A stretch of 23,472 bases of DNA, taken from Candidatus Baldrarchaeum yapensis. GTDB lineage: Archaea; Asgardarchaeota; Baldrarchaeia; Baldrarchaeales; Baldrarchaeaceae. The stretch is from positions 1 through 23,472 of the forward strand of contig JAEOSH010000032.1 in assembly GCA_016840465.1 (NCBI GenBank). Reading direction: 5' to 3'. The position numbers and the translations under genes are program-made. Below are positions 1 through 21,918 of this stretch, in pieces. Under the pieces are notes generated by a model. It did not search any database. It was given only the letters and a program-made list of their open reading frames with translations, and was not told the DNA's origin. Every line of letters starts with the position of its first letter. Positions within the stretch are counted from its first letter, which is position 1.

Positions 1-41
1 ATAGTGTTGCATTTGTTGCCCTCGTGCACCTTTGCAACCTC

Positions 42-55
42 AAAACCCTTATAAA
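42..55 (+). promoter_or_regulatory. Putative archaeal BRE/TATA promoter
   Basis: AAAACCC followed by TTATAAA (49-55). The expected start site about 25 nt downstream (76-78) coincides with the first base-paired segment of the GC-rich leader. Confidence 0.55.
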
Positions 56-75
56 GGACTTCTGTTGTGTTAAGC

Positions 76-250
76 GGGCTCCGCCCGGGATGTGGGAGGG
101 ACGGTGAGAGGGAGGGAAGCCCGAAAGGGCGGAGCGAAGGGTCAGATGGATGTACGGAGTACCGCTCCCCGCGAAAGCCCGTCGATGAACCCCGAGACGG
201 GAAGGCTCTCCGCCACGCACGCGTCAATTGCAACAAAAGTGGCGGAGAGT
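76..250 (+). ncRNA. Candidate structured 5' leader or small RNA of unknown family
   Basis: Several perfect stems: 78-86/127-135 (9 bp), GCCC-GAAA-GGGC 119-130, 131-136/163-168, 178-183/196-201 and 206-216/239-249 (11 bp). It lies between a TATA box and the first CDS. Confidence 0.4.
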
Positions 251-269
251 CAGAACGGTTGACAAATGA

Positions 270-3298: not shown

Positions 3299-4573
3299 GT
3301 GGTGATGCAAGTGAGTACCTCAAAAGCGTTGCAGGGATACTTTCAATTCCATGACAGATTACGCGGCGTGCTGACGGACACAAAGTGGACATTCTTCGGC
3401 GTGATATCTTATGACTACGTACTCTTCTCAAACGACATACTGATACTCCCCGAGAACGTGTGCATCGCGTTTGCAAAACTACTATCTGATATGGGGCATA
3501 ACGCGCTCGTGCTATTAAATATGGAGAGAGGGGGGCCTCTCTCCCTCTCCACCCCCGACGGTTTTTCAACATTCAGAAAACTGACGGAAAGTCTGGAGAG
3601 AACGCGTGTGCTATACTTCGGAGCGAGGGAAGAGACCCCCTGGGATAGGATAAAGGTTCCCTTAGAGTCGTTCAACAGGGTGGCGCCGACCGTTGCTAAA
3701 ATTCTATCCGCGCTTTCGAAAAAGTACGACTCCATTTCCCCGAAGAAGATTAGGAGGAGGGACGTTGACTCCCTCAGTCGGACCATTTCGGCAATACTAG
3801 GACCCCCCTCGCTCGGCAGGTACCTCATACTCAGGGCAAAGAAATATATCGAGGAACAGGGAGGCGGAACAAAGTTCGTATCCGGCCTTTTGAGCCTCAC
3901 AAGGCTGGCGGAGGTCTTCCTCTCCGGAGTACGTGGGTTCATCAACGGAGTAAAGCTATACATGAGAAACGAAGAGTACAAGCGGGCGCTCAGGGAGGAG
4001 CAGAAGAAGGTGAACCAGATATACTCCAAGGACATCCTATCGAGAATTTTCGGGGAGGAGAGTCCGGAATTTGAAGAGGGCGTGTACGTAGTAATCTCCG
4101 ATTGCTTCAGCAGACACTATGGGTTCTTCCTGCCCGCCCTGATAGATGAGTACCTAAACCGCCTAGAGAACGGGGTCCTGGTGCTCGGCGATCTTCCGGG
4201 ACCCGAGGACTACGACGCGTTTGCGAAGTGGCTCATCTCCCTACCCGAGAAGTACGAGTGCAAGGTGGTCGCGTGTGTGCCCTCCGCAAAGCTTCCAAAC
4301 ACCGATGCTTACGTCGACCTCATGAGGAGGCTGGTCATGGAAAAATCCCTGATATTCGATATAAAATCCGAGTTCTTCCATACACTACACGAGAGAGAAA
4401 GCATTGTCGTATACGCGTGGCTGTATGAGAAGTTTGGGCAGATAGAGGAAAACAGACGGCAGGGCGAAGGGCTAATAATACATCATGACGTTTACCGCGA
4501 AATAGACTGGGAACTCCTGTCACTTAAGCGAGGAAGACTGGAAAAGTTGGTAAGCAGGCTACTAAAGCGGTAG
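3299..4573 (+). CDS. Hypothetical protein, degenerate HerA/FtsK-like fold; paralogue of 4580-5905
   Basis: Long ORF with colinear similarity to the convergent neighbour (for example EEYKR...S.D.LSR...E). No intact Walker A or B. Confidence 0.75.
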   Translation: MVMQVSTSKALQGYFQFHDRLRGVLTDTKWTFFGVISYDYVLFSNDILILPENVCIAFAKLLSDMGHNALVLLNMERGGPLSLSTPDGFSTFRKLTESLERTRVLYFGAREETPWDRIKVPLESFNRVAPTVAKILSALSKKYDSISPKKIRRRDVDSLSRTISAILGPPSLGRYLILRAKKYIEEQGGGTKFVSGLLSLTRLAEVFLSGVRGFINGVKLYMRNEEYKRALREEQKKVNQIYSKDILSRIFGEESPEFEEGVYVVISDCFSRHYGFFLPALIDEYLNRLENGVLVLGDLPGPEDYDAFAKWLISLPEKYECKVVACVPSAKLPNTDAYVDLMRRLVMEKSLIFDIKSEFFHTLHERESIVVYAWLYEKFGQIEENRRQGEGLIIHHDVYREIDWELLSLKRGRLEKLVSRLLKR

Positions 4574-4579
4574 CCGCAC

Positions 4580-5905
4580 TTATCTGAAGAACCACTTTAT
4601 CTTATGCTTAATCTTCACCAGAAGCTTGGGCTTGACAAACTGCCACCTTTTTTCCGAGCACGCGTCGAACAGTATGAACGCCACCTCGCCGTTATCCAGC
4701 AATTGCCTCACCTGTCTGAATTGCCTCACAACCCATGCCTCCTCGGTTATCGACCTCCCCTCAAACACCCGCCGTATGAACCTTGAATCCGCATTGAAGA
4801 AGAGCGCGTACTCGCTCACCAGCAGGTCGAATAGTTCCAGAAACCAGGAAGAGAATTCACCAAACGTGGGAATCATGCTCATAAGCCTTAAGCCGTCCGC
4901 CTCTATCATGCTCTTCAGCAGGTCGAGGAAATCACGGTACCTGTCCAGCCTGGTGATGGAATCGACTATGAAGAGAACGTTCGGGTTTTCGGACATTATC
5001 TCGCGTATCAGTATCGGTATGAACAGGCTCTGCACGTTCTTGAAGTTCTCACATAATATCACAGCTAGGTTCTTCCTCCTGAGGCATTCCATAACTTCAC
5101 CGAGATTTCCATCCTCACTTATGAGTCTCGAAAGCGCATCCGGAGAAAAAAGACGCTTTATATTGTTCTCCCACTCCTTGATGTACCTCTTGTACTCCTC
5201 CGGCTTCTCCTTGGTCAGAATCTTCAGAAACTGGAAAGCGTAGCCCAATCCCTTGCTGAACGCCACGCTTGGATTGAAAATCACCGTGAGCGACGAGAGT
5301 ATGTGACCGCCTATCCTCTCGGGGGTTACCGATGCAAACTCCTTCTTTAACTCCTCGATCAGGGTTGGCGGCCTGAAAACATCTATCAGGAAGTTTGAAA
5401 GCGATACTATGTCACCGATGCCCTCAACATCCCTCTTCTCCACGGTTCTGGGAATCGGTATGGCGTACTTCAGAAGAGACGAAAGAAACTCATAATCCAG
5501 AACGGCACGTAGTGGCAGTTGAAGGAATGGAATCGAGGTCCTCTCCGCAACCCCGGTAACGTCGCTACCGAAGAAGAAAACAACATCCCGCATCCCGAGC
5601 ATCCTAAACAGGTCCTGATAAAACTCCGGGATCGACGCCACCGAGTACTGGTGCTCACGCGACGCATCTAGGAGAAGAACGGTCTTCATCTTCCTCCTCG
5701 GTACGTGCTCCGCCATCGATATGAGGAAAAACTCCGGAGTTATTATCCAGTTCTCCCCCTCTATGCACCGCTCGTCATAAGTGACAATGCTCAGGCACCT
5801 CCACCGCGGCCTGCGCCCCAGTATGCTATCCACGGTGACCGATACCGCGCGGTATCCCTGTATCAGCAGGTTCCGTTGCCTCTCACCAAGTGGTTGCTCA
5901 CTCAT
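4580..5905 (-). CDS. Hypothetical protein, degenerate HerA/FtsK-like P-loop fold
   Basis: RNLLIQGYRAVSVT occupies the RHxLIxGxTGSGKT position and VLFIVDSITRL the Walker B position (DE replaced by DS). SD GAGGT lies upstream. Confidence 0.75.
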   Translation of the reverse strand: MSEQPLGERQRNLLIQGYRAVSVTVDSILGRRPRWRCLSIVTYDERCIEGENWIITPEFFLISMAEHVPRRKMKTVLLLDASREHQYSVASIPEFYQDLFRMLGMRDVVFFFGSDVTGVAERTSIPFLQLPLRAVLDYEFLSSLLKYAIPIPRTVEKRDVEGIGDIVSLSNFLIDVFRPPTLIEELKKEFASVTPERIGGHILSSLTVIFNPSVAFSKGLGYAFQFLKILTKEKPEEYKRYIKEWENNIKRLFSPDALSRLISEDGNLGEVMECLRRKNLAVILCENFKNVQSLFIPILIREIMSENPNVLFIVDSITRLDRYRDFLDLLKSMIEADGLRLMSMIPTFGEFSSWFLELFDLLVSEYALFFNADSRFIRRVFEGRSITEEAWVVRQFRQVRQLLDNGEVAFILFDACSEKRWQFVKPKLLVKIKHKIKWFFR

Positions 5906-7280: not shown

Positions 7281-7631
7281 ATGAAGGCATGGGAAATAAG
7301 CGAACTCCTTAAGGAGCAGGGCTACCGGTTGCTCGATATTTACAGGACGAAAAACGCGGACATACTGAGGGTGCAGAATATCTCCACCGGTGAGGTCTTT
7401 AAGGTGCGAATTTCGGGCTTTAAGGAATCGGTAACCCCTGATCAACTGCTGGAACTCCTCAAAAAGCAGAGGATAAAATTGGAGGACGACAAGAAGGCGT
7501 GGCTCGAGAGAATTAAGAAAAAGATGAAAAAGGTCAGAATAGTCGGAAGGAAAGAAGAAAGGAAGAAGGAGGAAAAAGCGGAAGAGGTTGAGAGGAAAGA
7601 GGAGGAAAAAGAGGCGGGCGAGGAATCATAG
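7281..7631 (+). CDS. Hypothetical protein with a Lys/Glu-rich tail
   Basis: SD GGAGGT lies 7 nt before ATG 7281; a compact N-terminal domain is followed by a highly charged low-complexity tail. Confidence 0.7.
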   Translation: MKAWEISELLKEQGYRLLDIYRTKNADILRVQNISTGEVFKVRISGFKESVTPDQLLELLKKQRIKLEDDKKAWLERIKKKMKKVRIVGRKEERKKEEKAEEVERKEEEKEAGEES

Positions 7632-8006
7632 CCACGCGTCTATCACATTTATCGGAACTGCGCGCAACACTATGGCGTACTCCCCATTGCTTATCGCAAC
7701 GCGGTTTCCATGGCCAAGAACCCAGAAAATGTTTCTCCCGAGAACCTTTTCCGCCCTCCTCACAAGATCGTACCCCACCGCGAGCCCATCCCTCAGCAGA
7801 ACAACATACTCCTTTCCGTCAATCTTAACCCTCGCGCTTTCACCTCTCCCCACAAACCTGATTCCCCCGCGCTTCAGCAATGCGACAACCTCCTTATGAG
7901 GCATTAATATGGCGTCTTCTCGAAGTGAGTAGATCCCGCCGTTTGCGCATTTCACCGGCGCGAATATTCTTCGAAACCTCTCAACACACCTGATATTCTC
8001 TCGCAT
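7626..8006 (-). CDS. Hypothetical protein, last gene of the minus-strand chain
   Basis: ATG 8006 overlaps the upstream stop (TGATG); 126 aa ORF with no recognised family. Confidence 0.65.
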   Translation of the reverse strand: MRENIRCVERFRRIFAPVKCANGGIYSLREDAILMPHKEVVALLKRGGIRFVGRGESARVKIDGKEYVVLLRDGLAVGYDLVRRAEKVLGRNIFWVLGHGNRVAISNGEYAIVLRAVPINVIDAWL

Positions 8007-9544
8007 CACTTCATCCCTACCCTCATTGCCTCCAGCACTGCTTCCTCTACGTCCTTTACGGTCACCTTCCTTCCCCTAACCCTCTCACGAAGTATTCTCT
8101 CAATGGCAAATCTCACACGTGACCTTATGAAGTGAGGTACTCTTGCCAGCACGCCGTTCAGCCGCTCTAACGCCTCTTCCTCATACATTAGGCCTTCCTC
8201 CGACCGGATATCCTCTCGTGGATGGCTCCGCTTGTACGCATACACAAACTTGACGGTTTCCTCCCACACCCTGTGGAGAAGATAGGAGACCCCACGGATC
8301 CCCCTGAACGGCGCATCTAGGTATCGACTTGAGAAGTACCTCGCCGGTTCACTTGCTGGTATGAAACTACCAATACCGGCCTCCTGCGAAGCCAAGTACT
8401 CCGTGAATCCACCAAATACCATGAACGGGGACGCGCTCTTCAGGGAGTCGACTATCTGCTCCTTCCCCGGCATGACTAGAACCTTAGTGCCACCAAGTTC
8501 CCGTTCTCTGAAGAACCCTACAAGCGCTTCATGCATGCCGTTCTTTATTCCAATGACCGCAAGTGACATCCATAGATCATCCGAGAGAACCCTCGAGAGC
8601 CCATAGGCCAGCGTGTTCGATCCGAAAACCGCAACCGGGCTGTCCGCAATAGTGAACCCCGAAATGTCCATGTCATCTATGACACTCGCGCCCCAAACCC
8701 TCATTTCCCGAGCCAAGAACTCCTCCACGCGTTTCGAAATACTAGGGAAGTACTCCTTCAACCCTTCGAGAAACTCCATCGTTCCCTCGATGCCGAACGG
8801 CACCTCGGTGTAATAGGCGATGCCGAACTCCTTTTCCAGAAAGCGTGCAGCACTTTCTCCAAAGTCGTAAGGATACATTAGTATCGTGAGATCCGCATGG
8901 GGTAGATTTCTGAAATCCTCGATGCCCGCATTCGCAGGGACTATTGCGTTTATGCGCAGATCCACGCCTTTAAGGAGCCTCAAGGTCTCCAGCAGGTCGG
9001 CTCTCCAGTTGAATATCCCCTTTGTTGGCCCAATTATGTTAACACTCGGCTGTTTTCCGTCACCACCTCCACTAGCCTTTTGATCGCAGAACTCCCGTGT
9101 CAGCACATAAAGAGCCTTATCTATTCCGTCATAAAACGTATCACGGAGGGTGTTCGCATAAATGGGCACCACCGGAACCTCCACATCGCACCTCAGGCCC
9201 TCGACCTCGCACTGGAGTATATCCTCACTGATGAGCAGTTCGGTTACGTTAGTCGTAGTCACAACTAAAAGCTCGGGGTTGTAGTTCTTTACCGCCTCTT
9301 TCACGGCCCTCCTCAGTCTATCAAGCCCCCCATGCGCAACGTCAGTCGCCAGCAGGCTTGAAGTAAAAATGTGGCACCCCTGCTTTTCCGCAATCACAAA
9401 CTCGGAGACCGCGTAGTTTGAGCATCCCGACGGACTGTGAATCACGGGAATTGCCCTCTTCATCGATAGTACCACATCACAGATCCCCTGGAAACTGGAC
9501 GATATTACCTCCTCAGAATACAAGCTCCGGCTCACCGATACCAT
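8006..9544 (-). CDS. Nitrogenase-like oxidoreductase catalytic subunit, BchB/BchZ-type, with a C-terminal PCP_red-like domain
   Basis: VIHSPSGCSNY, NPELLVVTTTNVTELL and VNIIGP...D..E..RLL.G..L.IN are component-1 motifs. The C-terminal YEEEALERL...VPHFIRSRVRFAIE...VTVKDVEEA resembles the PCP_red domain. The start is ATG 9544 or GTG 9535. Confidence 0.85.
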   Translation of the reverse strand: MVSVSRSLYSEEVISSSFQGICDVVLSMKRAIPVIHSPSGCSNYAVSEFVIAEKQGCHIFTSSLLATDVAHGGLDRLRRAVKEAVKNYNPELLVVTTTNVTELLISEDILQCEVEGLRCDVEVPVVPIYANTLRDTFYDGIDKALYVLTREFCDQKASGGGDGKQPSVNIIGPTKGIFNWRADLLETLRLLKGVDLRINAIVPANAGIEDFRNLPHADLTILMYPYDFGESAARFLEKEFGIAYYTEVPFGIEGTMEFLEGLKEYFPSISKRVEEFLAREMRVWGASVIDDMDISGFTIADSPVAVFGSNTLAYGLSRVLSDDLWMSLAVIGIKNGMHEALVGFFRERELGGTKVLVMPGKEQIVDSLKSASPFMVFGGFTEYLASQEAGIGSFIPASEPARYFSSRYLDAPFRGIRGVSYLLHRVWEETVKFVYAYKRSHPREDIRSEEGLMYEEEALERLNGVLARVPHFIRSRVRFAIERILRERVRGRKVTVKDVEEAVLEAMRVGMK

Positions 9545-10802
9545 CCCCCTCGAACTTATATTCCAAGAAGGGATCACAAACCAGGTTGAATCTCCTCATA
9601 AAATCACGGAACCTCCTAACCTTCCCATCCAGCTTCCTGACAAAGTCTCTACCCGATTTTATTACACCAAGAAATCCGGGCACGTCCATATTTGCGATGG
9701 AAATCCTCGAAAAGAACCATGCGCCCATGTCGATTGCGAGCGATCCCATGATCCAGTTGCCGATCACGAAATCGAACTCCTCACCAGATACCCTTTTAAT
9801 CGTCTCGTACACGCTCCTCTCTTGATGGAACTCCCCACCGTTCTCCTCTATGAACGATACGTTCTCCCTCGCCAGTGGGGGAGCATACGACGTGAAAACA
9901 ACCGTCTCCATTCCTAGAGATACTGCTATCGACGCAAGGTTCACCTCCCTGCCCAGACTCGACGCTATCAGCACTTTTCTCCCAGACAACTTATCCTTCA
10001 GTTTCTCAACCTCATGCTCCCACCTGTCGAACCTCGTATCTACCTTAACACCCGTAACATCGGAAACCCTCTCGACCGCGAGCCTCGTTGGAGCAGTTCC
10101 ATATGGAAGAACATCCACGTAGGGGATCCCAAATCTCCTCATGATCTCCTTCAGCGCCTCCTCCGCAAAGACGTGCAGTGGTATGTTTACTCCGGCAAGA
10201 GGTGCCCTAATGATTTGATCTATTGGTGAGCCCTCGGATGACACGATGGCGGAATTCAACTTCATCGGTTTAAGAATCTCGGACATGTGGACCCTCCCGT
10301 GGAGCGTGGCATATCCCAATATGTTGAATCGGGTTGCTTCCGCCCCCTCCTGCGCGTCCATTAGGTCAATAAGCGACTTCAGCGCCTCTCCAGCCCCCAT
10401 GTACTCAGCCCTGCAGTTATATCCGGCCTTCACAACAATGACGGGAACTCCCGTCTCTTCGGATAGTTGCTCCGCTACTGACATCAGATCCTCGTTTATT
10501 GTGAGAGACGTGCATCCCTCAATTATTGCCACGGCCTTGGGCCTCTTTCTCTCGATTAACTGCCTAATTGCCTCGTATACCTTATCCACCGCGCCGAATA
10601 TAGCCTCCCTTTCATTAAACACCGTCCCCGGAGTGTAAAGAGGGGATCCCAGACGTGCGACTGAGATGTGACAACGCAGGTTTGCAACACAGTCGCGTGC
10701 CGCGTGTATGTAAACCAGCAATCCGTTTACCTTTGACAGAAAGAATGTCGCATAGAAGGTGGAGCACATACCCTCGGGTTGAGGCTCAAAATATCCTCTC
10801 AT
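9513..10802 (-). CDS. Nitrogenase-like oxidoreductase catalytic subunit, BchN/BchY-type
   Basis: Cys13 (EGMC), Cys38 (HAARDC) and Cys97 (IEGCT..I.EDL) with spacing 25 and 59; 429 aa; ATGA overlap with the Fe-protein gene. Confidence 0.85.
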   Translation of the reverse strand: MRGYFEPQPEGMCSTFYATFFLSKVNGLLVYIHAARDCVANLRCHISVARLGSPLYTPGTVFNEREAIFGAVDKVYEAIRQLIERKRPKAVAIIEGCTSLTINEDLMSVAEQLSEETGVPVIVVKAGYNCRAEYMGAGEALKSLIDLMDAQEGAEATRFNILGYATLHGRVHMSEILKPMKLNSAIVSSEGSPIDQIIRAPLAGVNIPLHVFAEEALKEIMRRFGIPYVDVLPYGTAPTRLAVERVSDVTGVKVDTRFDRWEHEVEKLKDKLSGRKVLIASSLGREVNLASIAVSLGMETVVFTSYAPPLARENVSFIEENGGEFHQERSVYETIKRVSGEEFDFVIGNWIMGSLAIDMGAWFFSRISIANMDVPGFLGVIKSGRDFVRKLDGKVRRFRDFMRRFNLVCDPFLEYKFEGDGIGEPELVF

Positions 10803-11692
10803 ACCACCTCGACCCCCGCGTACGTGAACCTCAAAAGATCTCCATATGGAATCGGGGTGGGTACCACCTTCAGGTTATTCGAAAGGACCTTTTCCGCGAG
10901 TTCCCTGAAGATCCTCACCGCATTAGAGTCAGGGAATGCTTCGAGAACGGTTTTGCCCAGCTTATCCGCCTCCAGAACCTCAGGCATTCTGGGCAAGATT
11001 CCTATGACGTTGGCGCCCATCAGAGATGCAAACTCCTCTATTATCTCCCTCTCCCCAGGCACGCCCCGCATGTTGCCTATCAATCCCCCGAGCGCAACCC
11101 CATGCCTACTATACCTTCTTATTGCCGCACATAGGTTGTTTGCCGCATACAGTGACATGAACTCTCCCGATGTTACAATGTAAACCTCACGGGCGAACCC
11201 TCTCTGCATGGGCTGTGCAAAGCCCCCGCAGACGACATCTCCTAGGATGTCATAGATCACCACATCGATCTTCAGCTCCTTGAAAACGTCCTTTGCCCTC
11301 AGGAACTCAAGCGCCGTTATTACGGCTCTTCCTCCACAACCCACGCCCGGCTCGGGCCCACCGCTTTCGGCACAAAAGACCCCGGCAAATCCCTCCACTA
11401 TCACCTCGTTCAGATCCACCCTGTCGAAGTCCATGTCCACTTCGCGCAACTTGTCCAGGATTGTCGGGATATGGTTGCTACCGGTTAGTAGCCGAGTGCT
11501 GTCCCTTTTGGGATCACACCCCACTTGGAGTACTCGGAGCCCCCTTAATGCGAACGCCGCAGACAGGTTGCACGCTATTGTCGACTTTCCGATACCCCCT
11601 TTCCCGTAAATTGCAATCGCCCTTGGCTCTTTCTCCTCAAACCTCACGGGTTTGATTCTCCTTCTGAGAATAACACATGGGGACTCACACAT
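10799..11692 (-). CDS. NifH/BchL/BchX-family Fe protein (ATP-dependent reductase)
   Basis: YGKGGIGKST, QVGCDPKRDST, ESGGPEPGVGCGGR and YDILGDVVCGGFA; both 4Fe-4S Cys are present. The start is probably ATG 11692, after GGAGGTG. Confidence 0.95.
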   Translation of the reverse strand: MCESPCVILRRRIKPVRFEEKEPRAIAIYGKGGIGKSTIACNLSAAFALRGLRVLQVGCDPKRDSTRLLTGSNHIPTILDKLREVDMDFDRVDLNEVIVEGFAGVFCAESGGPEPGVGCGGRAVITALEFLRAKDVFKELKIDVVIYDILGDVVCGGFAQPMQRGFAREVYIVTSGEFMSLYAANNLCAAIRRYSRHGVALGGLIGNMRGVPGEREIIEEFASLMGANVIGILPRMPEVLEADKLGKTVLEAFPDSNAVRIFRELAEKVLSNNLKVVPTPIPYGDLLRFTYAGVEVV

Positions 11693-13253
11693 CTCCATCA
11701 CCTCCCGACTTTTTACCCTTATACTCATAATACGAGTGAAGAGCGCGAGAACCCTTCTCGGTGAGATAGTACACCCTCCTGACCAGCTTCCCTATCTTCT
11801 GCTCAGTCGGGTGGACGTAACCCTCCTCCTCCATCTTCTGAATGAGGCGAGCACAATACGGAACGTCAAGGTCGAGAGTTGTCGCAATGTTGAACAGAGA
11901 TAGGCCGGGGTACTCCTTAATGAGATTTAGAACCTCCGCGGCGCTGTCCGCATCTGCTCCAAAGTCCATTAATAGAAGGGGAACGGGGGGATGCCCGGAG
12001 CAACTTTGCACGACGACCTCCGGGAACAAGTACGTGACCCGAGAAAGTATCTGTTCGTCGGTGGATGCTGGGATCTCCGCTAGGGATCTGTCCACCCTAA
12101 CCAAAAACGGTTCGGAGAAACCATATCTGAACACCACTGCATGATACGGCTCCAAGTTCTTAAGATAGGACATCTGGTACAGCCTTCTTCTGCCCTCGGG
12201 CGCATGAATTCCTATTGCGAATTCCCTCAGGTTCAGCACGTCCGCAACTATCCTCTGCTCGATCCTCGTGCCCACCTTAAATGATATACGGTTCCCTATC
12301 TTTGCAAAGAGTGAGGGGTGGACAAGTCCCGGTGACGAGGTTGTCAGGAGAACAAAATGCCCTCTGGAACGGAGTTCATCCAGATATCCTAGGAGTTCGA
12401 CTGCGCTCTCATGTCTGGTGCCCCTTGAAAACAAATGGTGACACTCGTCCAGCAACAAGACGATATTCTCACGAAGACCCGAGGCGAGGATTTTAATCAT
12501 GAATATCACCTCTACGAGACTTAAAACCTTGGATGAAAGTTTAGGAACCTCTATAACGACGCATCGCTCGGCGAGTTCTCTGATGCCGATTGTCTGCTCC
12601 CGGCAAAACATTCTAGCAAGAGGAGGTACCGTTAAAACTTGGAGTTCTTTTTCTAATGCTGAGATGAGGTATGCAACCCTCGGACCCTCGGCTCCGGATA
12701 GCGATGACAGTCTCTCCCTCAATTGGAGGAGAGTCGGCGTGGGATCCTCCTCATATGCATCATATAGAATTTTGAGAAAGATCCTCCACGCATCGGGGCT
12801 CATCTGAAGCACCGCCGCAAAGATATTCGCAACATGCAGTGCATAGTCCTCCCTTTTTGCGCCTTCGGTGTCGAGGGGGTTTAACACGAACGTTTCGCCC
12901 AAACGCAGGACCACAACCTCGGAATTCAGTCCGTGGAGCCTTCTGTACTCGGCATCCGACGTTACCACTATGAACCTGTAACCTCGGTCATGAAGCCCTG
13001 AAAGAATCTTCGCGCAGAGAGCATACCTTTCGATGGAGGTTCCCGCCATTACTAGCGTTCCGTGTCTCAATTCCTCAAGTGTAAAGCCCGCCGCCCCACA
13101 TGGTTCAAAGTTCTCTGTTTCTATGATCTCGCCTACCGCAACGTCGCATGAGACGTGAGAGGGGGTGACATATTCTACCGGAAGTTCCGGCGGCATCATC
13201 TTCACAGAGAACGTCGGAATTTGAAAGAACCTCAAAACCTCATCTCCGCTCAT
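11685..13253 (-). CDS. HerA/VirB4-like protein with a degenerate Walker A and a C-terminal winged-helix domain
   Basis: HGTLVMAGTSIERY at the Walker A position, FIVVTSDAEY, LNPLD, Walker B LLLDECHHLF and VLLTTSSP. The C-terminal LSLFNIATTL...KMEEEGYV...YYLTEKG is a wHTH. The start ATG 13253 overlaps the upstream stop (TGATG). Confidence 0.8.
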   Translation of the reverse strand: MSGDEVLRFFQIPTFSVKMMPPELPVEYVTPSHVSCDVAVGEIIETENFEPCGAAGFTLEELRHGTLVMAGTSIERYALCAKILSGLHDRGYRFIVVTSDAEYRRLHGLNSEVVVLRLGETFVLNPLDTEGAKREDYALHVANIFAAVLQMSPDAWRIFLKILYDAYEEDPTPTLLQLRERLSSLSGAEGPRVAYLISALEKELQVLTVPPLARMFCREQTIGIRELAERCVVIEVPKLSSKVLSLVEVIFMIKILASGLRENIVLLLDECHHLFSRGTRHESAVELLGYLDELRSRGHFVLLTTSSPGLVHPSLFAKIGNRISFKVGTRIEQRIVADVLNLREFAIGIHAPEGRRRLYQMSYLKNLEPYHAVVFRYGFSEPFLVRVDRSLAEIPASTDEQILSRVTYLFPEVVVQSCSGHPPVPLLLMDFGADADSAAEVLNLIKEYPGLSLFNIATTLDLDVPYCARLIQKMEEEGYVHPTEQKIGKLVRRVYYLTEKGSRALHSYYEYKGKKSGGDGDV

Positions 13254-14008
13254 CACGATCCCCCTTCTACCCCTCTGACCACGCATAACACCGCCTCCCT
13301 CAGTTCTTCACCACGCAAAACCCTCAACTTTGTGTGAGGGAAACCGCTCAGGAACAGGGACTTTATCTTTGAAACCCTCTCCCTGACCCTTTCCGCGCAC
13401 TCCACGAGACCTTTCTCCGAATTACCCGTTTCGTATCTGGTCAATAGAAGCATACGACATCTCCAGACGCCTCCGATGGATGTCAGCAAACTCTCCCTCG
13501 CCTCTGACATCTTTCTCTTCAGTTTCTCTTTGTACTCATCCGATAATTCGGGCTCCCTCAAAGCCTCCTCCGGGCTCAGCGGCTCCTGGATGAACACATA
13601 AACAAGTGGTATCCTCTCCGCATACGCGGACCTTATGAAAAATTCAAAGTTCCCCCGCACACCTATCGGTATCCTCTCAAGTTCCAGACCGCCCACAGCA
13701 ATTACTTTTGACCCCTGTCTGAAAAGTATCACATCCTCGATAATCTCCCCCTGCGGCATCCCGTCCGTACCGGAGATGGCAAACTTGCCACTCCTATCAT
13801 TGATTATGCTGTTAATGACGGATGCCGATAAGACGCCGAACAGTACACTTATTATAAGCGCGCTTGGACCCGGAAGCACATTCTCCAGCGCGTAAGACGC
13901 CAGGATGAACATCAGCAACCCTACCCATACACATACCAACCTGTAATTGGAAGAGCTCCCGCCACTATTCGGTTTGCGAATATGAATCCTACCCGCTACT
14001 CCTTCCAC
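13253..14008 (-). CDS. Membrane protein (2 TM plus a soluble domain), possibly VirB3/VirB4 N-terminal-like
   Basis: Two hydrophobic helices near the N-terminus are followed by an alpha/beta domain ending in KLRVLRGEEL. The gene is coupled to the HerA-like gene. The family assignment is tentative. Confidence 0.7.
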   Translation of the reverse strand: MEGVAGRIHIRKPNSGGSSSNYRLVCVWVGLLMFILASYALENVLPGPSALIISVLFGVLSASVINSIINDRSGKFAISGTDGMPQGEIIEDVILFRQGSKVIAVGGLELERIPIGVRGNFEFFIRSAYAERIPLVYVFIQEPLSPEEALREPELSDEYKEKLKRKMSEARESLLTSIGGVWRCRMLLLTRYETGNSEKGLVECAERVRERVSKIKSLFLSGFPHTKLRVLRGEELREAVLCVVRGVEGGS

Positions 14009-14288
14009 CCGCCACCACCCCCACTAACACAACCATCATCAGGGAGAGAATCAGCGCGTTGACGGACAGCGATAGGAGAAGATCCGTGGATACGGTGGGC
14101 CGCACAAGTAGGTGCATGAAGTCTATGACCAGCACAAGCGCGATTAGCAAAGATGACTTGAGCGGACCGTACCTGCCTCTCGATCTAATTACCGTTATTA
14201 ACAGCCATGCGCTACCAAACAACCACAGATTCTCCAGCACGAACTTGAACAGCATCACATAAATTACGAGTTCCATGAAACTCGCCAT
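13989..14288 (-). CDS. Small hydrophobic membrane protein (about 3 TM)
   Basis: 99 aa and almost entirely hydrophobic; SD GGAGGGG; overlaps both neighbours. Confidence 0.7.
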   Translation of the reverse strand: MASFMELVIYVMLFKFVLENLWLFGSAWLLITVIRSRGRYGPLKSSLLIALVLVIDFMHLLVRPTVSTDLLLSLSVNALILSLMMVVLVGVVAGGRSSG

Positions 14289-14662
14289 CCCATCCCCTCC
14301 TTCTCACAAGCGTGCGCCATCTCGCCCACTATCCACCTCAACAAGAGTTCAGACCTCGTGAAAATACGCACCCTGACGGCATTGTCACCTGCCGGGAGAA
14401 CTTTAACACGAACAGGATCGTTAGCTCTTCCATTCGTCACTCCGTCTGCACCCAAGTTTTTCACTACACTTTCGACAACGCCCCTCACCCTTTCCGCATC
14501 GGCTCCCCAGATGGTCAGTTCCGTCCTCCGATCGTAAACGCATATTTCGCTCAAAACATCATTAGGGCGCTTGGTACTTCCCCTGATCGATCTTACGATG
14601 AGTAAAAACATCACGGCGGAGTAAAGTGCAATTGTCAGGTTAATCGCGTCCACTTCCACCAC
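14264..14662 (-). CDS. Small membrane-anchored protein (1 N-terminal TM)
   Basis: SD GGAGGTG before the GTG start; N-terminal hydrophobic helix; overlaps the helicase stop. Confidence 0.7.
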   Translation of the reverse strand: MVEVDAINLTIALYSAVMFLLIVRSIRGSTKRPNDVLSEICVYDRRTELTIWGADAERVRGVVESVVKNLGADGVTNGRANDPVRVKVLPAGDNAVRVRIFTRSELLLRWIVGEMAHACEKEGMGWRVSWNS

Positions 14663-16766
14663 TCAGCACCTCCAGCAGTTCTCCCGCAAGGTGAGAGGTG
14701 TTTAGATACCCGCACAGTTCGCTTATTGCTCTGAGGGCATGGAGGGACCACCTGATGTAATCTATGAGTTCTTCGAAGTCGCCGGGCGGAATCTCGAATC
14801 TCACCGGGATTTCCTCCACGCTTATTCTCCCTTCATAAACTTCCAGAAGTGCGGCATGGAGTTGCGGAGGTACTCTTCTGCCCTCCTCGGATAAGAAACC
14901 GCAGAATCTTCTGATGAAGTCATAAACGTCTCCGCTGAACCTGCTGGAAAGAGCGTGCATCGCAACCGCAGTGCGCGGTCTGAGGTACAATTTTATGACC
15001 AGCTCGCCGAACCTCGTGACCTCGAATGCGGTAATGTCGGCGTCCTCAATCTGCTTGACCAGGCCCCCACGCATTAGGAAGTCCAAAGCGCTCCCCATGC
15101 CCAGTCCATCAAGAACTATGCCGATGCGATCTCGAAGATTTTCTGCAACATACATTGCGAGGCCTACCAGATGCCTACACGGGGTTGTACGTCTCATCTT
15201 CGAGAACTCAGAGCACTCGCACCAGGCGCCGTTACGTGAAATCGTGCACATTCTCCCATTCACAATTCCCTCGATCCTCCTACCATCTGCCTTCGTGATC
15301 ACGACTTCTCCACTGATTTCGTGAGATTCGTCCCAGTCGAGGAACCTCGTTTTGCCCGTTAAGAGTATTTTCCTTGAAATCTCAATTGCGGGTCTCTTGC
15401 GCCCCCAAAGTGTGCTTCTAAGGAACTCCACCAGATCGTCGATTGTTGCGCCTTCCGAGTCGTATATTGCAACGAGGAGCAACTCCTCCATAAGGTCTCC
15501 GTTCTCCAGCTGGCTCTCCACATTCTCATACCTAGGAGTCTGCCGCCCATCACGGAACAGCACACTTCTGAGAAGTTCTCTCTCCTGATCGGTGTACACG
15601 AGTATGTAGGCATGTCCACTGCTGTCAAATCCGGGCCTCCCCGCCCTCCCCACTATTTGGAATATCGTGTTTGCGCCTAATCTCCGGTACTCCATCCCAT
15701 CCGGCGTGCGCCTCACTACCACCAAGTCCCGCAGAATCACATAGCGTGCGGGCATGTTTATTCCCGCCGAAAGGGTGGTGGTGCACACGAGAACCTTCAA
15801 TAGCCTTTTCCTGAACGCGAGTTCTATTGCCCTTCTCAAATTCAGAGAGAGGCCCGCGTGGTGAAAGCATACCCCGGAGGGGGCCACTCTGAAGGCCCTC
15901 CTTGCAAGGGAACTCCTATCTCCCCCCGTAGCATTATCCAGAATTTTGCGAATGCGCATTCCAACCTCATCGTCCACGTGGTCCTTTAGGATCTCGCCGA
16001 GTTTTTCGGCAAGACTCTCGGCATCCCTCCTCCTTGCAACGAATACCAGCACCTGTCCCTCCTCTGAACAGCGCTCCCTCAGAAATTCCTTAATGAAGGC
16101 ATTCTTTTGCCGCGTGACCGTGATGCTTATCTCGAGCGGCACCATCCTAGCATGCGACTCTATCAAGGCACAATTCAACCATGACGCTATCTCATGTGGG
16201 TTTCCGATACTTGCGCTCAGCGGAATCATCTGGATATCGTTTTTGCGGGCCCTGAGCCTAAGCCTTGTCAGTATGCCTTCCAGCCGTGGACCCCTTTCAG
16301 GGTCACTGAGCATGTGCACCTCATCGATGACCACCGTTCTCAGCATGTCGAGAACGGCTGGGATTTGCCTCGTCATGGAGTCGAACTTCTCGTAGGTCAG
16401 TATCATAACATCGGCGTCGAGGATGTCTGAGGGGAATCTGTAGAAATCTCCCGTCGACATCACTATCCTGAGCGAGCGCGTCCTGCAAATCTCAACCATA
16501 TCATCGTACTTCTCGTAGGCCACAGACTTCAATGGAACTATATACGCCGCCTTTCCCCCGCTCAGTGCGCTGTTTATACATGCAATCTCGCCCAGGAGCG
16601 ACTTGCCCGATGCGGACGGCGAACAAATCATGACGTTGCGTCCTCTAAATACTCCCAGTTTCACTGCCGTGGACTGCACCGCGTTGAACCCCATCACTCC
16701 CCTCGCTGTCAGTATTTCGGCAAGTTCCCCGTCTAATCCGTAATTTACCGCTTCCTTAACCCTCAC
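14640..16766 (-). CDS. Ski2/Hel308-like SF2 DEAD/DEAH-box helicase with an inserted SWIM zinc finger
   Basis: SPSASGKS, IDEVH, LSASIGN, FHHAGL, TTTLSAGINMPA and GRAGRPGFD helicase motifs, plus CEC-x12-CRH (SWIM). The start is probably GTG 16766. Confidence 0.92.
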   Translation of the reverse strand: MRVKEAVNYGLDGELAEILTARGVMGFNAVQSTAVKLGVFRGRNVMICSPSASGKSLLGEIACINSALSGGKAAYIVPLKSVAYEKYDDMVEICRTRSLRIVMSTGDFYRFPSDILDADVMILTYEKFDSMTRQIPAVLDMLRTVVIDEVHMLSDPERGPRLEGILTRLRLRARKNDIQMIPLSASIGNPHEIASWLNCALIESHARMVPLEISITVTRQKNAFIKEFLRERCSEEGQVLVFVARRRDAESLAEKLGEILKDHVDDEVGMRIRKILDNATGGDRSSLARRAFRVAPSGVCFHHAGLSLNLRRAIELAFRKRLLKVLVCTTTLSAGINMPARYVILRDLVVVRRTPDGMEYRRLGANTIFQIVGRAGRPGFDSSGHAYILVYTDQERELLRSVLFRDGRQTPRYENVESQLENGDLMEELLLVAIYDSEGATIDDLVEFLRSTLWGRKRPAIEISRKILLTGKTRFLDWDESHEISGEVVITKADGRRIEGIVNGRMCTISRNGAWCECSEFSKMRRTTPCRHLVGLAMYVAENLRDRIGIVLDGLGMGSALDFLMRGGLVKQIEDADITAFEVTRFGELVIKLYLRPRTAVAMHALSSRFSGDVYDFIRRFCGFLSEEGRRVPPQLHAALLEVYEGRISVEEIPVRFEIPPGDFEELIDYIRWSLHALRAISELCGYLNTSHLAGELLEVLSGGSGRD

Positions 16767-17631
16767 GTTCCGCACCTCCCCAAATCCTTAGAATGGATTG
16801 CAGTATGCTTTCTCCGATCCTTGCATATCTGCCGTTGGATTTTGCGAAGAGCAATTCTGAGAGTTTGCTTCCAGATCCGTGGCCGTCGGCCGCTCTCAAG
16901 AACATCACATGAAACTCGGAGTCCCGATCACATCTCATGAGCAGGAACGTGGAACTGGGGTGGGCGAGCATTTCTTCAACATCTATTGGCACCACTCGCA
17001 GGTTCATAAGATTATCCAAATCGATCTCCGCCTCGCTATAATCGGATCTGCCATCTACGATTTCCAGTATCATCTCCATTATTGTCGAAATATTCCGATT
17101 TCTATCGACATCTCGTATTAGGAGGGCCTTCGGCCGGGCGCATCCGTCATTCCTTATCAGCATCACTTCTGAGTTCAGCACTCTCGCGATCGAAAGAACC
17201 TCCTCTACGGAGGCTCTGGATTCTACCGGTATCACTAGCTTTCCGTGGTCTCCTCTCATCAAGATCGCAATTCCATTCCGTGCAATCAGTACTGTTTTCC
17301 TTCGGGACATCTCGTACACTATAACATACGCGACGGTGAGGACCAGGGGCAGGAGGATAAGCGGGTTTTCCCGTATGAGGAGGAACGTTATGTGAACGGA
17401 GAACAACAACATTATCAGCGCCGGTAGCCTGCGAGAAGATGCATACACGCTCGTTCCAAAGATCATCACCACATAGAATAGAATTATCGGAAGATGCGCG
17501 CTCCAAATTCCAAATAACGCCAGTCTTGTCAGCATAATAAGCGATACGATTCCCTCCTCCACCACCGACAGCAACCATAGGATGAAGACTGCCCCCAGCA
17601 TGTACCTGATGATCACGTCATTCGTCGCCAT
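16756..17631 (-). CDS. Membrane protein (about 4 N-terminal TM plus a soluble domain)
   Basis: Hydrophobic first 110 aa; SD-like GGGGGTGG before ATG 17631; overlaps both neighbours. Confidence 0.72.
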   Translation of the reverse strand: MATNDVIIRYMLGAVFILWLLSVVEEGIVSLIMLTRLALFGIWSAHLPIILFYVVMIFGTSVYASSRRLPALIMLLFSVHITFLLIRENPLILLPLVLTVAYVIVYEMSRRKTVLIARNGIAILMRGDHGKLVIPVESRASVEEVLSIARVLNSEVMLIRNDGCARPKALLIRDVDRNRNISTIMEMILEIVDGRSDYSEAEIDLDNLMNLRVVPIDVEEMLAHPSSTFLLMRCDRDSEFHVMFLRAADGHGSGSKLSELLFAKSNGRYARIGESILQSILRIWGGAEREG

Positions 17632-18280
17632 TTTCGCCACCCCCTAACGAGTAATTTATCCGCACTCCCGCGCTCCTCCCCGATAATTTCTCAATGACCG
17701 CCACTCTATGACCTCCGGCCGTGGAATCCCTCTCTAAGCGTATGACCGTACGTGCCAGCTTCTTCAGGGGTAGTAACAATCTCTGGTGGTGCAACTCGGA
17801 GGAGTTGAATTGGGCCAGCGCGATAATTGAGGTTCCTCTCCTGAGCAACAGCACGAGTATGGGGATCATTTCCTCTAAAACTTTAAACGCAGCCTTGAAC
17901 CCGTACCGGTAAATATTCCACCTTATCAGTGAGGAAATCGTGTCTATCACTATCAGAATGCCCGAGCCGGATGCTGTGGAACGAATGCCATCGAGTATTG
18001 AGAGCAACCGTGAAACTTCCGGGTTTCCAGTTATGACTGTTATTCTTCTGAGCAATTCGGGATTCTTCATGAAGCGGCCACGCAGGGCGCGGGGATCCAA
18101 CTTCAAATCTACATCTAGGTACATGGTCCTGATGTTCATCCGTGCCGCATGTATCGCCATTCTAAGGGCAATCATCGTTTTCCCGGTTCCGGACTCCCCG
18201 TATATCATGCAGATCGACGGATGAGCTATCCCTCCGTCCAGAATCTCATCAAGTTCCGGAACTCCCGTGCTGAGGACCAT
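17618..18280 (-). CDS. RecA-superfamily ATPase (RadB/aRadC-like, no N-terminal domain)
   Basis: LSTGVPELDEILDGGI, YGESGTGKT and LIVIDTIS; about 220 aa. Confidence 0.88.
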   Translation of the reverse strand: MVLSTGVPELDEILDGGIAHPSICMIYGESGTGKTMIALRMAIHAARMNIRTMYLDVDLKLDPRALRGRFMKNPELLRRITVITGNPEVSRLLSILDGIRSTASGSGILIVIDTISSLIRWNIYRYGFKAAFKVLEEMIPILVLLLRRGTSIIALAQFNSSELHHQRLLLPLKKLARTVIRLERDSTAGGHRVAVIEKLSGRSAGVRINYSLGGGENGDE

Positions 18281-18281
18281 C

Positions 18282-21518: not shown

Positions 21519-21918
21519 AATATACACTCTCCTGGGACGGTAATGCTTCTTTTAACCGCGATATGTTTCGGGATATTCCATCAGACCCACTAATTGCTTG
21601 GTATTTTACCAGATGCGCCGCCTGTCGACTTTTTTTCACAAGTGGGGTTGATGCAGGGGGTTTATATAGGGTACTACAATCATGTTACTGTGCTGACGAA
21701 AATACGTGATTTTACCGCGTTCCGGTTATATACAGTTTTATTTTTGAAACTTGAGTAAAAAATTTGAAATTTTGTAATATTATGCATTTTATTCGGTATA
21801 ATTTGATGCCGGAAGACGAGACCCGGTGTACCATTCTTGCAAAAATTTCAAAAACTGCGAGAGAGTGGTACGCGAGGTTTTGCAATTGTTCTTGCAGCAT
21901 GAAGTTGCATGCCAACCC

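Follow-up and report, generated by a model that had tools for sequence, protein, structure and literature searches.

An uncultured Asgard archaeon of the Baldrarchaeia encodes, within the 23,472-nucleotide stretch of DNA analysed here (the window), a complete three-protein nitrogenase-like reductase, consisting of an Fe protein, an N-like and a B-like subunit. The question is what such an enzyme would act on in an archaeon that, as judged from its gene content, is unable to make chlorophyll-type pigments.

The three genes are coupled, as had been claimed from the sequence alone: all run in the same direction on the minus strand, and their ends overlap (Table 1). The Fe-protein stop overlaps the N-like start by 4 nt, the B-like gene overlaps the 3' end of the N-like gene, and the B-like stop overlaps the start of the gene for a 127-aa protein, again by 4 nt. 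At the other end, the stop of a HerA-type ATPase gene overlaps the Fe-protein start by 8 nt. For the N-like gene, an alternative start (M12 = 10769) is given by gene callers. All catalytic motifs are intact in the three proteins, which are 46-66% identical across lineages. When the window was searched for chelatase, bch, cfb, mcr and nif accessory genes, none was found, which bears out the earlier statement; the chelatase sets of this organism sit elsewhere in its genome.

Table 1. Features of the reductase locus, with positions in the window
Feature	Coordinates	Strand	Remarks
Fe protein, NifH-like ATP-dependent reductase, 297 aa	10799..11692	(-)	ORF to 11728; likely start M13 = 11692
N-like catalytic subunit, BchN/BchY type, 429 aa	9513..10802	(-)	PF00148
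B-like catalytic subunit, BchB/BchZ type, ~512 aa	8006..9544	(-)	ORF to 9577; start M12 at 9544
PCP_red-type C-terminal helical domain of B-like subunit, residues ~465-520	8018..8185	(-)	PF08369 sub-threshold, hhalign, model
127-aa accessory protein, conserved, without known family	7626..8009	(-)	synteny in related loci
HerA/DUF87-type ATPase with C-terminal winged helix	11685..13286	(-)	neighbour, not demonstrated part

Properties of the three proteins

The Fe protein is matched by PF00142 at 323 bits. It carries the P-loop GKGGIGKST, and its Cys131 and Cys167 stand at the positions of NifH Cys97 and Cys132, in agreement with its first assignment as an Fe protein. It stays under the cut-offs of the equivalog models nifH (341 bits against 394), CfbC (324 against 402), BchL (232 against 345) and BchX (193 against 331). 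It is 63-66% identical to Baldrarchaeial relatives and 50-52% identical to Group IV-like NflH; the values are 40% for BchL and, in an alignment of partial length, 43% for BchX. In the tree, these Fe proteins form their own clade with a support of 100. By these comparisons, BchL and BchX are more distant from the protein than NifH and the Group IV proteins are.

The N-like subunit is recognised by PF00148 (165 bits) and lies far under the cut-off of every NCBIfam equivalog (nifE 81, BchB 64 and BchN 49 bits). The three conserved cysteines noticed earlier in this protein were found to be Cys13, Cys38 and Cys97; they align with the three cluster ligands of BchN and BchY and are the same in these proteins and in every relative that was aligned. 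The fold is the generic one of nitrogenase component 1, not specific to BchN, and matches MarD, NifK and NifE equally to or better than any DPOR chain.

The B-like subunit scores 189 bits with PF00148, and only 171 with the BchB model TIGR01278 (cut-off 490) and 99 with BchZ (cut-off 529). Its Cys52, in the motif HSPSGC, aligns at the position of BchB Asp36 and the BchZ cysteine, and the position of BchB Cys95 holds no cysteine in the alignment. The place of BchB Asp274 is occupied by a stretch rich in Asp, VIDDMD (299-304). The PCP_red-like C-terminal domain that had been noticed is upheld by profile comparison and fold, though below the Pfam cut-off: PF08369 gives 20-22.7 bits (E 7e-4 and 3e-4; gathering score 32.5), and hhalign of the tail with BchB/BchZ C-termini gives a probability of 95% with E 3e-8. 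The tail aligns residue by residue with both C-termini, keeps the P-x-F-x-R motif and has a 4-residue insertion as in BchZ. The AF2 model (pLDDT 78.7) places three helices at 467-519, and in Foldseek its top 14 PDB matches are all BchB/ChlB, with 2ynm_D aligned over 515 columns. Such a C-terminal domain is common to the aligned members of the DPOR/COR-containing clade.

Taken over both catalytic subunits, four of the six P-cluster positions are cysteines, in a 3+1 arrangement (three on the N-like and one on the B-like subunit). The predicted cluster is an all-Cys [4Fe-4S] of this 3+1 type, as proposed for COR. NifB, searched for in the genome, is absent (27.5 bits against a cut-off of 343).

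Relation to known nitrogenase-like enzymes

In the N-like tree, the Baldrarchaeial subunits form their own lineage (100/100) within a clade (97/98) that also holds BchN, BchY and two uncharacterised bacterial lineages. The B-like tree is similar, with a separate lineage (100/100) in a clade (95/94) of BchB, BchZ and two uncharacterised bacterial lineages. The BchB, BchZ, BchN and BchY clades are each supported at 100/100, and the Baldrarchaeial subunits stand outside all four; nesting in these characterised clades is therefore excluded. CfbD identity was likewise rejected, as its model gives 33-34 bits against a cut-off of 268. For Mar, the trees argue more weakly in the same direction: Group IV-like reference systems, used as stand-ins for Mar in place of verified MarDK sequences, fall outside the BchN/BchY-containing clade. 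Since all the equivalog models stayed below their cut-offs, the names DPOR, COR, CfbCD and nitrogenase were each rejected. On its tree positions, the reductase is a separate Baldrarchaeial lineage in the supergroup of DPOR, COR and uncharacterised Group VI-like enzymes.

Group VI nitrogenase-like proteins are uncharacterised, are placed next to Group V and have been proposed to act on a tetrapyrrole substrate (doi 10.1101/765248; PMC13474568). The nearest relatives found outside the Baldrarchaeial family (P0010-P0015), which stem from a deltaproteobacterial MAG and from loci with many radical-SAM genes, share its clade and look like Group VI, the comparison being with the published description. 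Because these bacterial analogues match Group VI as described, the reductase adds a new archaeal lineage to a kind of enzyme already known though uncharacterised, and is not unprecedented. The sequence-only reading, which had suggested an undescribed deep-branching relative of DPOR/COR, thus stands for the well-supported catalytic lineages; its novelty is reduced by the bacterial analogues, and its kinship does not extend to the NifH/Group IV-like Fe protein. With Group VI, the Baldrarchaeial system shares at most four of the six P-cluster cysteines and the lack of FeMo-co ligands and NifB. It differs in its archaeal locus without radical-SAM neighbours, in the separate 100/100 lineage of each catalytic subunit and in its accessory genes, namely that for the 127-aa protein and, in relatives, one for a 147-aa stand-alone PCP_red protein. 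Fe proteins of the putative Group VI loci are long-branched; the Baldrarchaeial one is not and does not join them.

Among Group V enzymes, COR (BchXYZ) is similar in its three components, in having three cysteines on the Y/N-type and one on the Z/B-type subunit, in the PCP_red domain with the same insertion and in belonging to the same well-supported clades. It is set apart by the low BchZ and BchX scores, the position outside the BchZ/BchY clades, an Fe protein that is not BchX-like, the missing bch context and the archaeal host. DPOR (BchLNB/ChlLNB) provides the best HMM match and the best solved structures for the B-like subunit, and shares the three N-subunit cysteines, an Asp near the BchB Asp274 proton donor and the PCP_red domain. 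However, Cys52 replaces the unusual Asp36 ligand of DPOR, a cysteine at the Cys95 position is missing, BchB, BchN and BchL reach 171, 49 and 232 bits against 490, 420 and 345, and the subunits lie outside the BchB/BchN clades. CfbCD, the Ni-sirohydrochlorin a,c-diamide reductive cyclase and known archaeal tetrapyrrole enzyme, is alike in being archaeal, ATP-dependent and equipped with a simple [4Fe-4S], and the CfbC and NifH models give similar scores for the Baldrarchaeial Fe protein. It has one type of catalytic subunit, as against two here, the CfbD score is low, and the Baldrarchaeial genome lacks sirohydrochlorin synthesis. CfbD is also not known to have a PCP_red domain.

A scavenged tetrapyrrole as the probable substrate

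The reading considered most likely, at a rough probability of 0.5, is a functional three-component, ATP-dependent nitrogenase-like reductase that probably reduces, by two electrons, a C=C bond of an imported tetrapyrrole-like macrocycle. If it works as DPOR and COR do, the NifH-like Fe protein would, as a homodimer, hold a bridging [4Fe-4S] on Cys131 and Cys167, accept a low-potential electron, bind MgATP and dock on an (N-B)2 heterotetramer. Electrons would pass singly to an inter-subunit [4Fe-4S] bound by Cys13, Cys38 and Cys97 of the N-like and Cys52 of the B-like subunit, and from there to the substrate at the N/B interface. The pocket is expected to be covered by PCP_red helices that the partner B subunit contributes, and an acidic residue of the VIDDMD stretch may serve as the proton donor.

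This reading is supported by the intact domains and motifs, the position of both catalytic subunits in clades with tetrapyrrole reductases, the PCP_red domain, the 3+1 cysteines, the Asp in the BchB Asp274 region, the absence of NifB and the structural matches of the B-like subunit. A tetrapyrrole-like substrate would have to be imported, as the genome encodes no pathway leading to uroporphyrinogen: HemB, HemC, TP_methylase, CbiX and CobS are all absent from it (96% completeness). BchM and BchE equivalogs were not found in the genome either (63 bits against 159 and 271 against 481), and the earlier description of the host as apparently non-phototrophic stands. The genome does contain at least seven B12-binding proteins, an importer operon (BtuF-FecCD-ABC) that is fused with CobN and ChlID, and two BchH/CobN-type chelatase sets, with a BchH-type chelatase that passes the TIGR02025 cut-off (1028 bits against 829); these, too, favour the reading. 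Within the class, a chelatase occurs in 2/2 genomes with the reductase and 0/3 without it, a count that rests on related genomes. This co-occurrence is a weak argument, as chelatases are found in 61 of 400 Asgard genomes, of which hardly any has the reductase, and none was found in the deltaproteobacterial genome carrying a related reductase; BchH-like chelatases are also common in methanogen controls. Against the reading speak, besides, the NifH/Group IV-like Fe protein, an N-like fold that is no closer to DPOR than to MarD, NifK or NifE, the lack of a tetrapyrrole gene beside the operon, and the place of the genes at the tail of an array whose other members look DNA-related.

It is less probable that the same architecture serves a non-tetrapyrrole substrate, such as a small organosulfur compound, another unsaturated or aromatic compound (cf. 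Group IV MAR, ISR) or another cofactor precursor. This would suit a genome without tetrapyrrole biosynthesis, an operon with no tetrapyrrole gene, the NifH/Group IV-like Fe protein that clusters apart from BchL/BchX, and the N-like fold, whose best match is MarD (9fmg_A). The catalytic subunits, however, group with BchN/Y and BchB/Z and not with the Group IV-like systems, the PCP_red domain has so far been tied to tetrapyrrole enzymes, and no sulfur-metabolism genes are adjacent. NifB, P-cluster ligands and cofactor ligands are all missing, whereas MAR uses nitrogenase-type clusters (PMC12552129).

The gene array and the origin of the contig

The reductase genes form the tail of an array of 12 co-directional genes with overlapping ends (7626-21527). 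Its other members look DNA-related: a Hel308-like helicase, a KaiC/RadA-like ATPase, membrane proteins and the HerA-type ATPase with its winged helix (HTH_24 29 bits; DUF87/HerA/CedB clusters matched by Atlas features at 0.97). Elsewhere in the genome the helicase has a Hel308-like paralogue, and it resembles HamB helicases. Array order and boundaries are kept in relatives at 27-66% identity while the flanks differ, and the HerA-type gene is syntenic in all of them. In all related loci, the gene for the 127-aa protein follows immediately on the B-like gene (33-38% identity); family searches gave no match, and the Atlas model bears a weak likeness to an alpha+beta clamp-like domain (TM 0.57-0.62).

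From this arrangement, the overlap of the HerA-like and Fe-protein genes and the clamp-like fold, a joint role of the reductase with the upstream module in nucleic-acid modification, import or defence could be imagined; it appears improbable. The module is found without the reductase in other Asgard genomes (loci examined: G116, G003, G310), and is thus separable, the reductase looking appended. HerA-type homologues occur in 98/400 Asgard genomes, nearly all without the reductase, which itself is rare (2/400, and a few metagenome contigs). The 127-aa protein was not found in Asgard loci having the module alone, and we know of no nitrogenase-like enzyme that acts on nucleic acids.

A genuine DPOR or COR, with which the archaeon would make or finish (bacterio)chlorophyll, is very improbable and has been largely refuted: the BchB-like matches, the COR-like cysteines and the BchH-type chelatase speak for it, but the six DPOR/COR equivalog models reach just 12-67% of their cut-offs, the subunits lie outside all four Bch clades, a Cys replaces the DPOR Asp ligand, the pathway genes named above are absent or lack equivalogs, and BchH-like chelatases are common beyond this genome.

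An artefactual origin of the locus, by mis-binning of a bacterial contig, chimeric assembly or decay to a relic, is hardly credible: the contig has an outlying tetranucleotide profile (r = 0.76 with the rest of the genome, fourth lowest of 80 contigs; median 0.91) and GC (0.509 against 0.459), yet the intact motifs argue against decay, relatives carry the label Candidatus Baldrarchaeota, and independent assemblies and contig joins refute the artefact. The contig is archaeal. At least 14 contigs, which come from several samples and were assembled independently, show the identical arrangement, and a ~275-bp dispersed repeat at the end of the contig is shared with at least 11 others in the genome. 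At 99.7-99.9% identity, an 85-kb contig connects the reductase contig with C27 and C65, two other contigs of this genome, and carries the archaeal-type housekeeping genes Fae, short TIM, a SepSecS/Aminotran_5-type enzyme and an aminoacyl-tRNA synthetase.

The reductase and its contig

The three-gene reductase of Candidatus Baldrarchaeum yapensis represents an archaeal lineage, intact, conserved and very rare, within the DPOR/COR/Group VI branch of the nitrogenase superfamily. No earlier description was met with in the literature searched, and the lineage appears to be the first of this branch from an archaeon (Asgard); Group VI-like systems of bacteria have been described before. To our knowledge, the only characterised members of the DPOR/COR branch are DPOR (BchLNB) and COR (BchXYZ), both of which serve photosynthesis, and the non-phototrophic Group VI relatives have been on record for bacteria since 2020, none of them with a known substrate.

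The genes overlap one another and lie on a complete contig of 23.5 kb (C57), part of a genome of 2.27 Mb at 96% completeness. For the Fe protein, a length of 297 aa is also given by the gene callers on identical contigs.

Features of the window, of related loci and of two other contigs of the genome
Feature	Location	Strand	Description
Terminal repeat	window 1-260		GC-rich, ~275 bp
Convergent paralogue	window 3299-4573	+	424 aa
Convergent paralogue	window 4580-5905	-	441 aa
Accessory gene	window 7626-8009	-	127 aa, no family
B-like component-1 protein	window 8006-9577	-	~512 aa from M12; Oxidored_nitro 189 bits (Pfam)
N-like component-1 protein	window 9513-10802	-	429 aa; Oxidored_nitro 165 bits (Pfam)
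Fe protein	window 10799-11728	-	probable start 11692, 297 aa; Fer4_NifH 323 bits (Pfam)
Conserved Asgard module	window 11685-21527		prenyltransferase-repeat giant to HerA/DUF87 ATPase-wHTH
12-gene co-directional array	window 7626-21527	-	overlapping gene ends
Stand-alone PCP_red-motif protein	L001:8297-8740; L003:2663-3106		147 aa, related loci
Mannose-type PTS	L001:17206-21512		EIIA, EIIB, EIIC/D, enzyme I
BtuFCD-like importer and chelatase operon	C58 16000-22000 (L054:5222-13912)		BtuF-like binding protein, FecCD permease, ABC ATPase, CobN, ChlI/D fusion
Second chelatase set	C12 6947-12805 (L053)		1254-aa chelatase adjoining ChlI/D fusion; BchH equivalog 1028 bits, cut-off 829

In the Pfam search, PCP_red falls at residues 467-513 of the B-like protein with 20-22.7 bits, which is below the gathering score of 32.5 bits. 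Over its last 60 residues, the protein nevertheless aligns with PCP_red as present in BchB and BchZ, sharing a 4-residue insertion with the latter, and the profile-profile comparison by hhalign gives this tail a probability of 95% (E 3e-8). The best solved structures by sequence are BchB/ChlB chains. Likewise, the 14 best Foldseek matches of the AlphaFold model (pLDDT 78.7) are all BchB/ChlB, one alignment extending over 515 columns. With hhalign, alignment and fold in agreement, the B-like subunit carries a C-terminal PCP_red domain, as in DPOR and COR, and the three-gene nitrogenase-like reductase with a PCP_red-like tail, proposed in the sequence-only reading, is borne out. The model of the N-like protein (pLDDT 80.4) has a generic fold, which MarD, NifK and NifE match at least as well as the DPOR chains do; Foldseek does not distinguish BchN from NifD, NifK, NifE or MarD here.

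In DPOR, BchN supplies three Cys as ligands of the NB-cluster and BchB supplies the unusual Asp36; all-Cys 3+1 ligation is the pattern proposed for COR. In the N-like protein, Cys13, Cys38 and Cys97 are invariant throughout the supergroup and align with the three cluster ligands of BchN/BchY. In the B-like protein, Cys52 (motif HSPSGC) aligns with Asp36 of BchB, a position that is Cys in BchZ and NifK, and no Cys is found at the position of BchB Cys95. Thus, four of the six nitrogenase P-cluster positions are Cys, arranged 3+1 between the N-like and B-like proteins. From these residues, a COR-like inter-subunit [4Fe-4S] cluster with only Cys ligands is predicted. An Asp-rich stretch of the B-like protein (VIDDMD, 299-304) lies opposite the region of BchB Asp274, the proton donor of DPOR, where the alignment is gapped.

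The composition of the contig is atypical: its tetranucleotide profile correlates with that of the remaining genome at 0.76 against a median of 0.91, and its GC is 0.509 against 0.459. Despite this, the contig is archaeal, as other evidence outweighs composition. This gene order has been assembled on 14 or more contigs, which come from several samples. An 85-kb contig runs on both sides into the sequence of two further contigs of the genome, C27 and C65, at 99.7-99.9% identity, with an aminoacyl-tRNA synthetase, ThiI, a SepSecS/Aminotran_5-type enzyme, Fae and a short TIM in its flanks. Copies of the terminal repeat, which has no Rfam match, occur at 85-96% identity on no fewer than 11 other contigs of this genome; the repeat marks the assembly break between C27 and C57. 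A mis-binned bacterial fragment, the caveat attached to the sequence-only reading, is ruled out by the join, the number of contigs and the recurring repeat taken together.

Relationship to named enzymes

The identity tests were carried out with curated equivalog models, and every score fell well below its cut-off. The nitrogenase D/K models reached at most 81 bits on the catalytic subunits.

Scores of the reductase proteins against NCBIfam equivalog models, each with its own cut-off
Protein	Model	Score (bits)	Cut-off (bits)
B-like	BchB (TIGR01278)	171	490
B-like	BchZ (TIGR02014)	99	529
N-like	NifE	81	505
N-like	BchN (TIGR01279)	49	420
N-like and B-like	CfbD (TIGR03282)	33-34	268
Fe protein	NifH (TIGR01287)	341	394
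Fe protein	CfbC (NF033200)	324	402
Fe protein	BchL (TIGR01281)	232	345
Fe protein	BchX (TIGR02016)	193	331

Trees were built with IQ-TREE (LG+C20 by PMSF, ultrafast bootstrap and SH-aLRT) on annotated references from plasmid records, a set without verified Elusimicrobia Group VI and "group VIII" NifH-like sequences (Dong et al. 2022, PMC9391474). In the B-type tree, a clade with 95/94 support unites five lineages, each at 100/100 and in unresolved branching order: BchB, BchZ, the Baldrarchaeial family, a deltaproteobacterial pair and a radical-SAM-linked trio. In the N-type tree, the Baldrarchaeial family (100/100) shares a 97/98 clade with BchN, BchY and the partners of the two bacterial lineages; it stands outside a 95/93 subclade formed there by the deltaproteobacterial partners, BchN and BchY. 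The BchB, BchN, BchZ and BchY clades, each at 100/100, all exclude the window proteins. The Fe protein forms its own clade (support 100); the backbone that it shares with NifH and Group IV-like proteins is unresolved. BchL, BchX and the long-branched Fe proteins of two putative Group VI loci (L004 and L006) lie far from it. Group IV-like proteins are 50-52% identical to the Fe protein, NifH 47-49%, the putative Group VI Fe proteins 42-45% and BchL 40%. The scores and the separate catalytic lineages support the earlier suggestion of an undescribed enzyme that could be a deep relative of DPOR and COR.

The named systems can be set aside in turn. The reductase keeps the three N-subunit Cys of DPOR; DPOR is rejected on all three of its equivalog models, on Cys52 in place of Asp36 and on the position outside the BchB and BchN clades. 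The 3+1 all-Cys positions are shared with COR, which is rejected on the BchZ and BchX scores and on the position outside the BchZ and BchY clades. The window reductase further differs from Group V (DPOR/COR) in being without a (bacterio)chlorophyll pathway (BchM, BchE/AcsF, precursors), the genome having a BchH-type chelatase alone. CfbCD has a single type of catalytic subunit where two different ones are found here, and both of its models score below cut-off; CfbD was judged through the HMM score alone and has no place in the trees, because NCBIfam labelling of ten further representative matches yielded no CfbD or other named reference. A nitrogenase- or MAR-type enzyme, with a P-cluster and NifB-derived cofactor, is rejected on the four P-cluster Cys, the NifH score and the absence of NifB from the genome (best score 27.5 bits, cut-off 343).

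Close relatives are few. A word-indexed search of 5.8 billion proteins returned only three close B-like homologues, at 53-55% identity. An exhaustive HMMER search of 1.84 billion cluster representatives gave one related cluster at 589 bits, the next matches having at most 165 bits, and a related-locus search from a 6-sequence alignment gave two loci only. Among 400 Asgard species genomes, the reductase occurs in two, the present one and one other from the same taxonomic order; the NCBI records of the relative and of its Fe protein are labelled Candidatus Baldrarchaeota. Two sister genomes of that taxonomic order (G007 and G006; loci L024 and L025) lack this reductase and encode a different nitrogenase-like pair: one catalytic subunit of 418-423 aa, followed by a NifH-like protein 52-54% identical to that of the window.

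The next-nearest proteins (P0010-P0015) are BchB-like, at 23-31% identity by alignment or search, and are also sub-threshold. Some come from a deltaproteobacterial MAG, where the reductase adjoins a Shikimate_DH-type gene, possibly HemA-like, and a cytochrome c assembly gene. The others lie in loci where NifH, N and B, in that order, are flanked on either side by a radical-SAM gene, and near one such locus there is also a TP_methylase gene. Group VI was described as the sibling of Group V, with radical-SAM-rich loci in Elusimicrobia, Gracilibacteria and Myxococcales and a proposed tetrapyrrole substrate (Meheust 2020, doi 10.1101/765248); its members have at most four of the six P-cluster Cys, no FeMo-co ligands and no NifB (review PMC13474568). 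The P0010-P0015 loci fit this published description. The window reductase resembles Group VI in its four P-cluster Cys and in the lack of NifB. It differs in that no radical-SAM gene lies in the window and in its Baldrarchaeial rather than bacterial host. Its Fe protein joins neither those of L004 and L006, loci matched to the group by its description, nor BchL or BchX.

Tetrapyrrole context and possible substrate

The host was proposed to be non-phototrophic, and this agrees with its gene content. The genome has no BchM equivalog (63 bits, cut-off 159) and no BchE equivalog (271 bits, cut-off 481), and therefore no chlorophyll pathway. HemB, HemC, TP_methylase, CbiX and CobS are all absent from the 96%-complete genome, and HemB from all five genomes of the class. 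As the TP_methylase family has no member at all, no homologue of Dph5 (diphthine synthase) is detected in this archaeal genome either. Because at least seven B12-binding domains score above threshold in the absence of those enzymes, the archaeon must, to judge from its gene content, import corrinoids.

The genome further encodes two class-I chelatase sets; the CobN of the C58 operon is split into two ORFs (794 and 503 aa) with a 7-nt overlap. Within the class, chelatases are found only in the two genomes with the reductase. This link is suggestive at most, because 61 of the 400 Asgard genomes have a chelatase and the deltaproteobacterial genome with a related reductase has none.

Phylogeny, the PCP_red domain and the genome context point, with a probability of about one half, to ATP-driven reduction of an imported tetrapyrrole-like macrocycle. 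That the same reductase acts on a substrate other than a tetrapyrrole is rather unlikely, yet it is the stronger of the other readings. More doubtful still is the wider idea of an unrecognised archaeal porphyrinoid pathway in a cell with no de novo tetrapyrrole synthesis. On this idea, a porphyrinoid would be taken up from the environment through the BtuFCD-like importer, the BchH/CobN-ChlID chelatases, whose genes lie outside the window, would insert the metal, and the reductase would carry out the reductive step towards a chlorin-, bacteriochlorin- or corrin-like cofactor. As a member of the unresolved five-lineage radiation with BchB/BchN and BchZ/BchY, the enzyme could also be of the pre-photosynthetic type from which DPOR and COR arose, which is equally doubtful.

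The substrate, once found, would reveal the role of the branch apart from chlorophyll synthesis and perhaps earlier than it, as well as the way in which scavenged macrocycles are handled by an archaeon auxotrophic for tetrapyrroles. Being compact and intact, with an Fe protein that is conservative and NifH-like and a cluster predicted to be simple and all-Cys, the system may be tractable for heterologous expression.

Gene neighbourhood

The reductase genes form the tail of the 12-gene array. It starts with a 1081-aa protein with prenyltransferase-type repeats, after which come a KaiC/RadA-like ATPase, membrane proteins and a Hel308-like helicase with a paralogue elsewhere in the genome. Next is a winged-helix ATPase of the HerA/DUF87 type, the stop of which overlaps the start of the Fe protein; the reductase genes and the 127-aa protein complete the array. 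Order and boundaries are kept in the relatives at 27-66% identity, with differing flanks. Homologues of the HerA-type ATPase are encoded in 98 of the 400 Asgard genomes, in some cases as fusions with the 251-aa protein. At the loci of three other Asgard genomes, the upstream module is accompanied by neither the reductase nor the 127-aa protein, so the reductase looks like a separable unit appended in the Baldrarchaeial lineage. The module itself may be a Ced-like DNA-translocation apparatus.

The 127-aa protein accompanies the reductase in the relatives. Its predicted complex with the B-like subunit scored 0.00, which speaks neither for nor against pairing. Along with the 251-aa, 294-aa and small membrane proteins, it has no match in PADLOC or PHROGs. 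Neither of the convergent paralogues, which are 24% identical to each other, matches Pfam or NCBIfam. Rfam and tRNA scans of the whole window gave no match, and a promoter and terminator scan, using a sigma-70 consensus ill-suited to archaea, did no better than on shuffled sequence. A search of sequencing runs for the window DNA listed no RNA run; the DNA is present in hydrothermal-vent, sediment and seawater metagenomes, several of which are possibly its source.

In the relatives, a stand-alone PCP_red-motif protein is encoded between the Fe-protein and N-like genes, with a clear motif (W-x-P-E-A ... P-P-F-V-R). It is missing from the window, and the genome has no other PCP_red match. On one of these related contigs (L001, Baldrarchaeial), the genes of a mannose-type PTS, which is unusual for archaea, lie downstream of the reductase block at a distance of a few kb.
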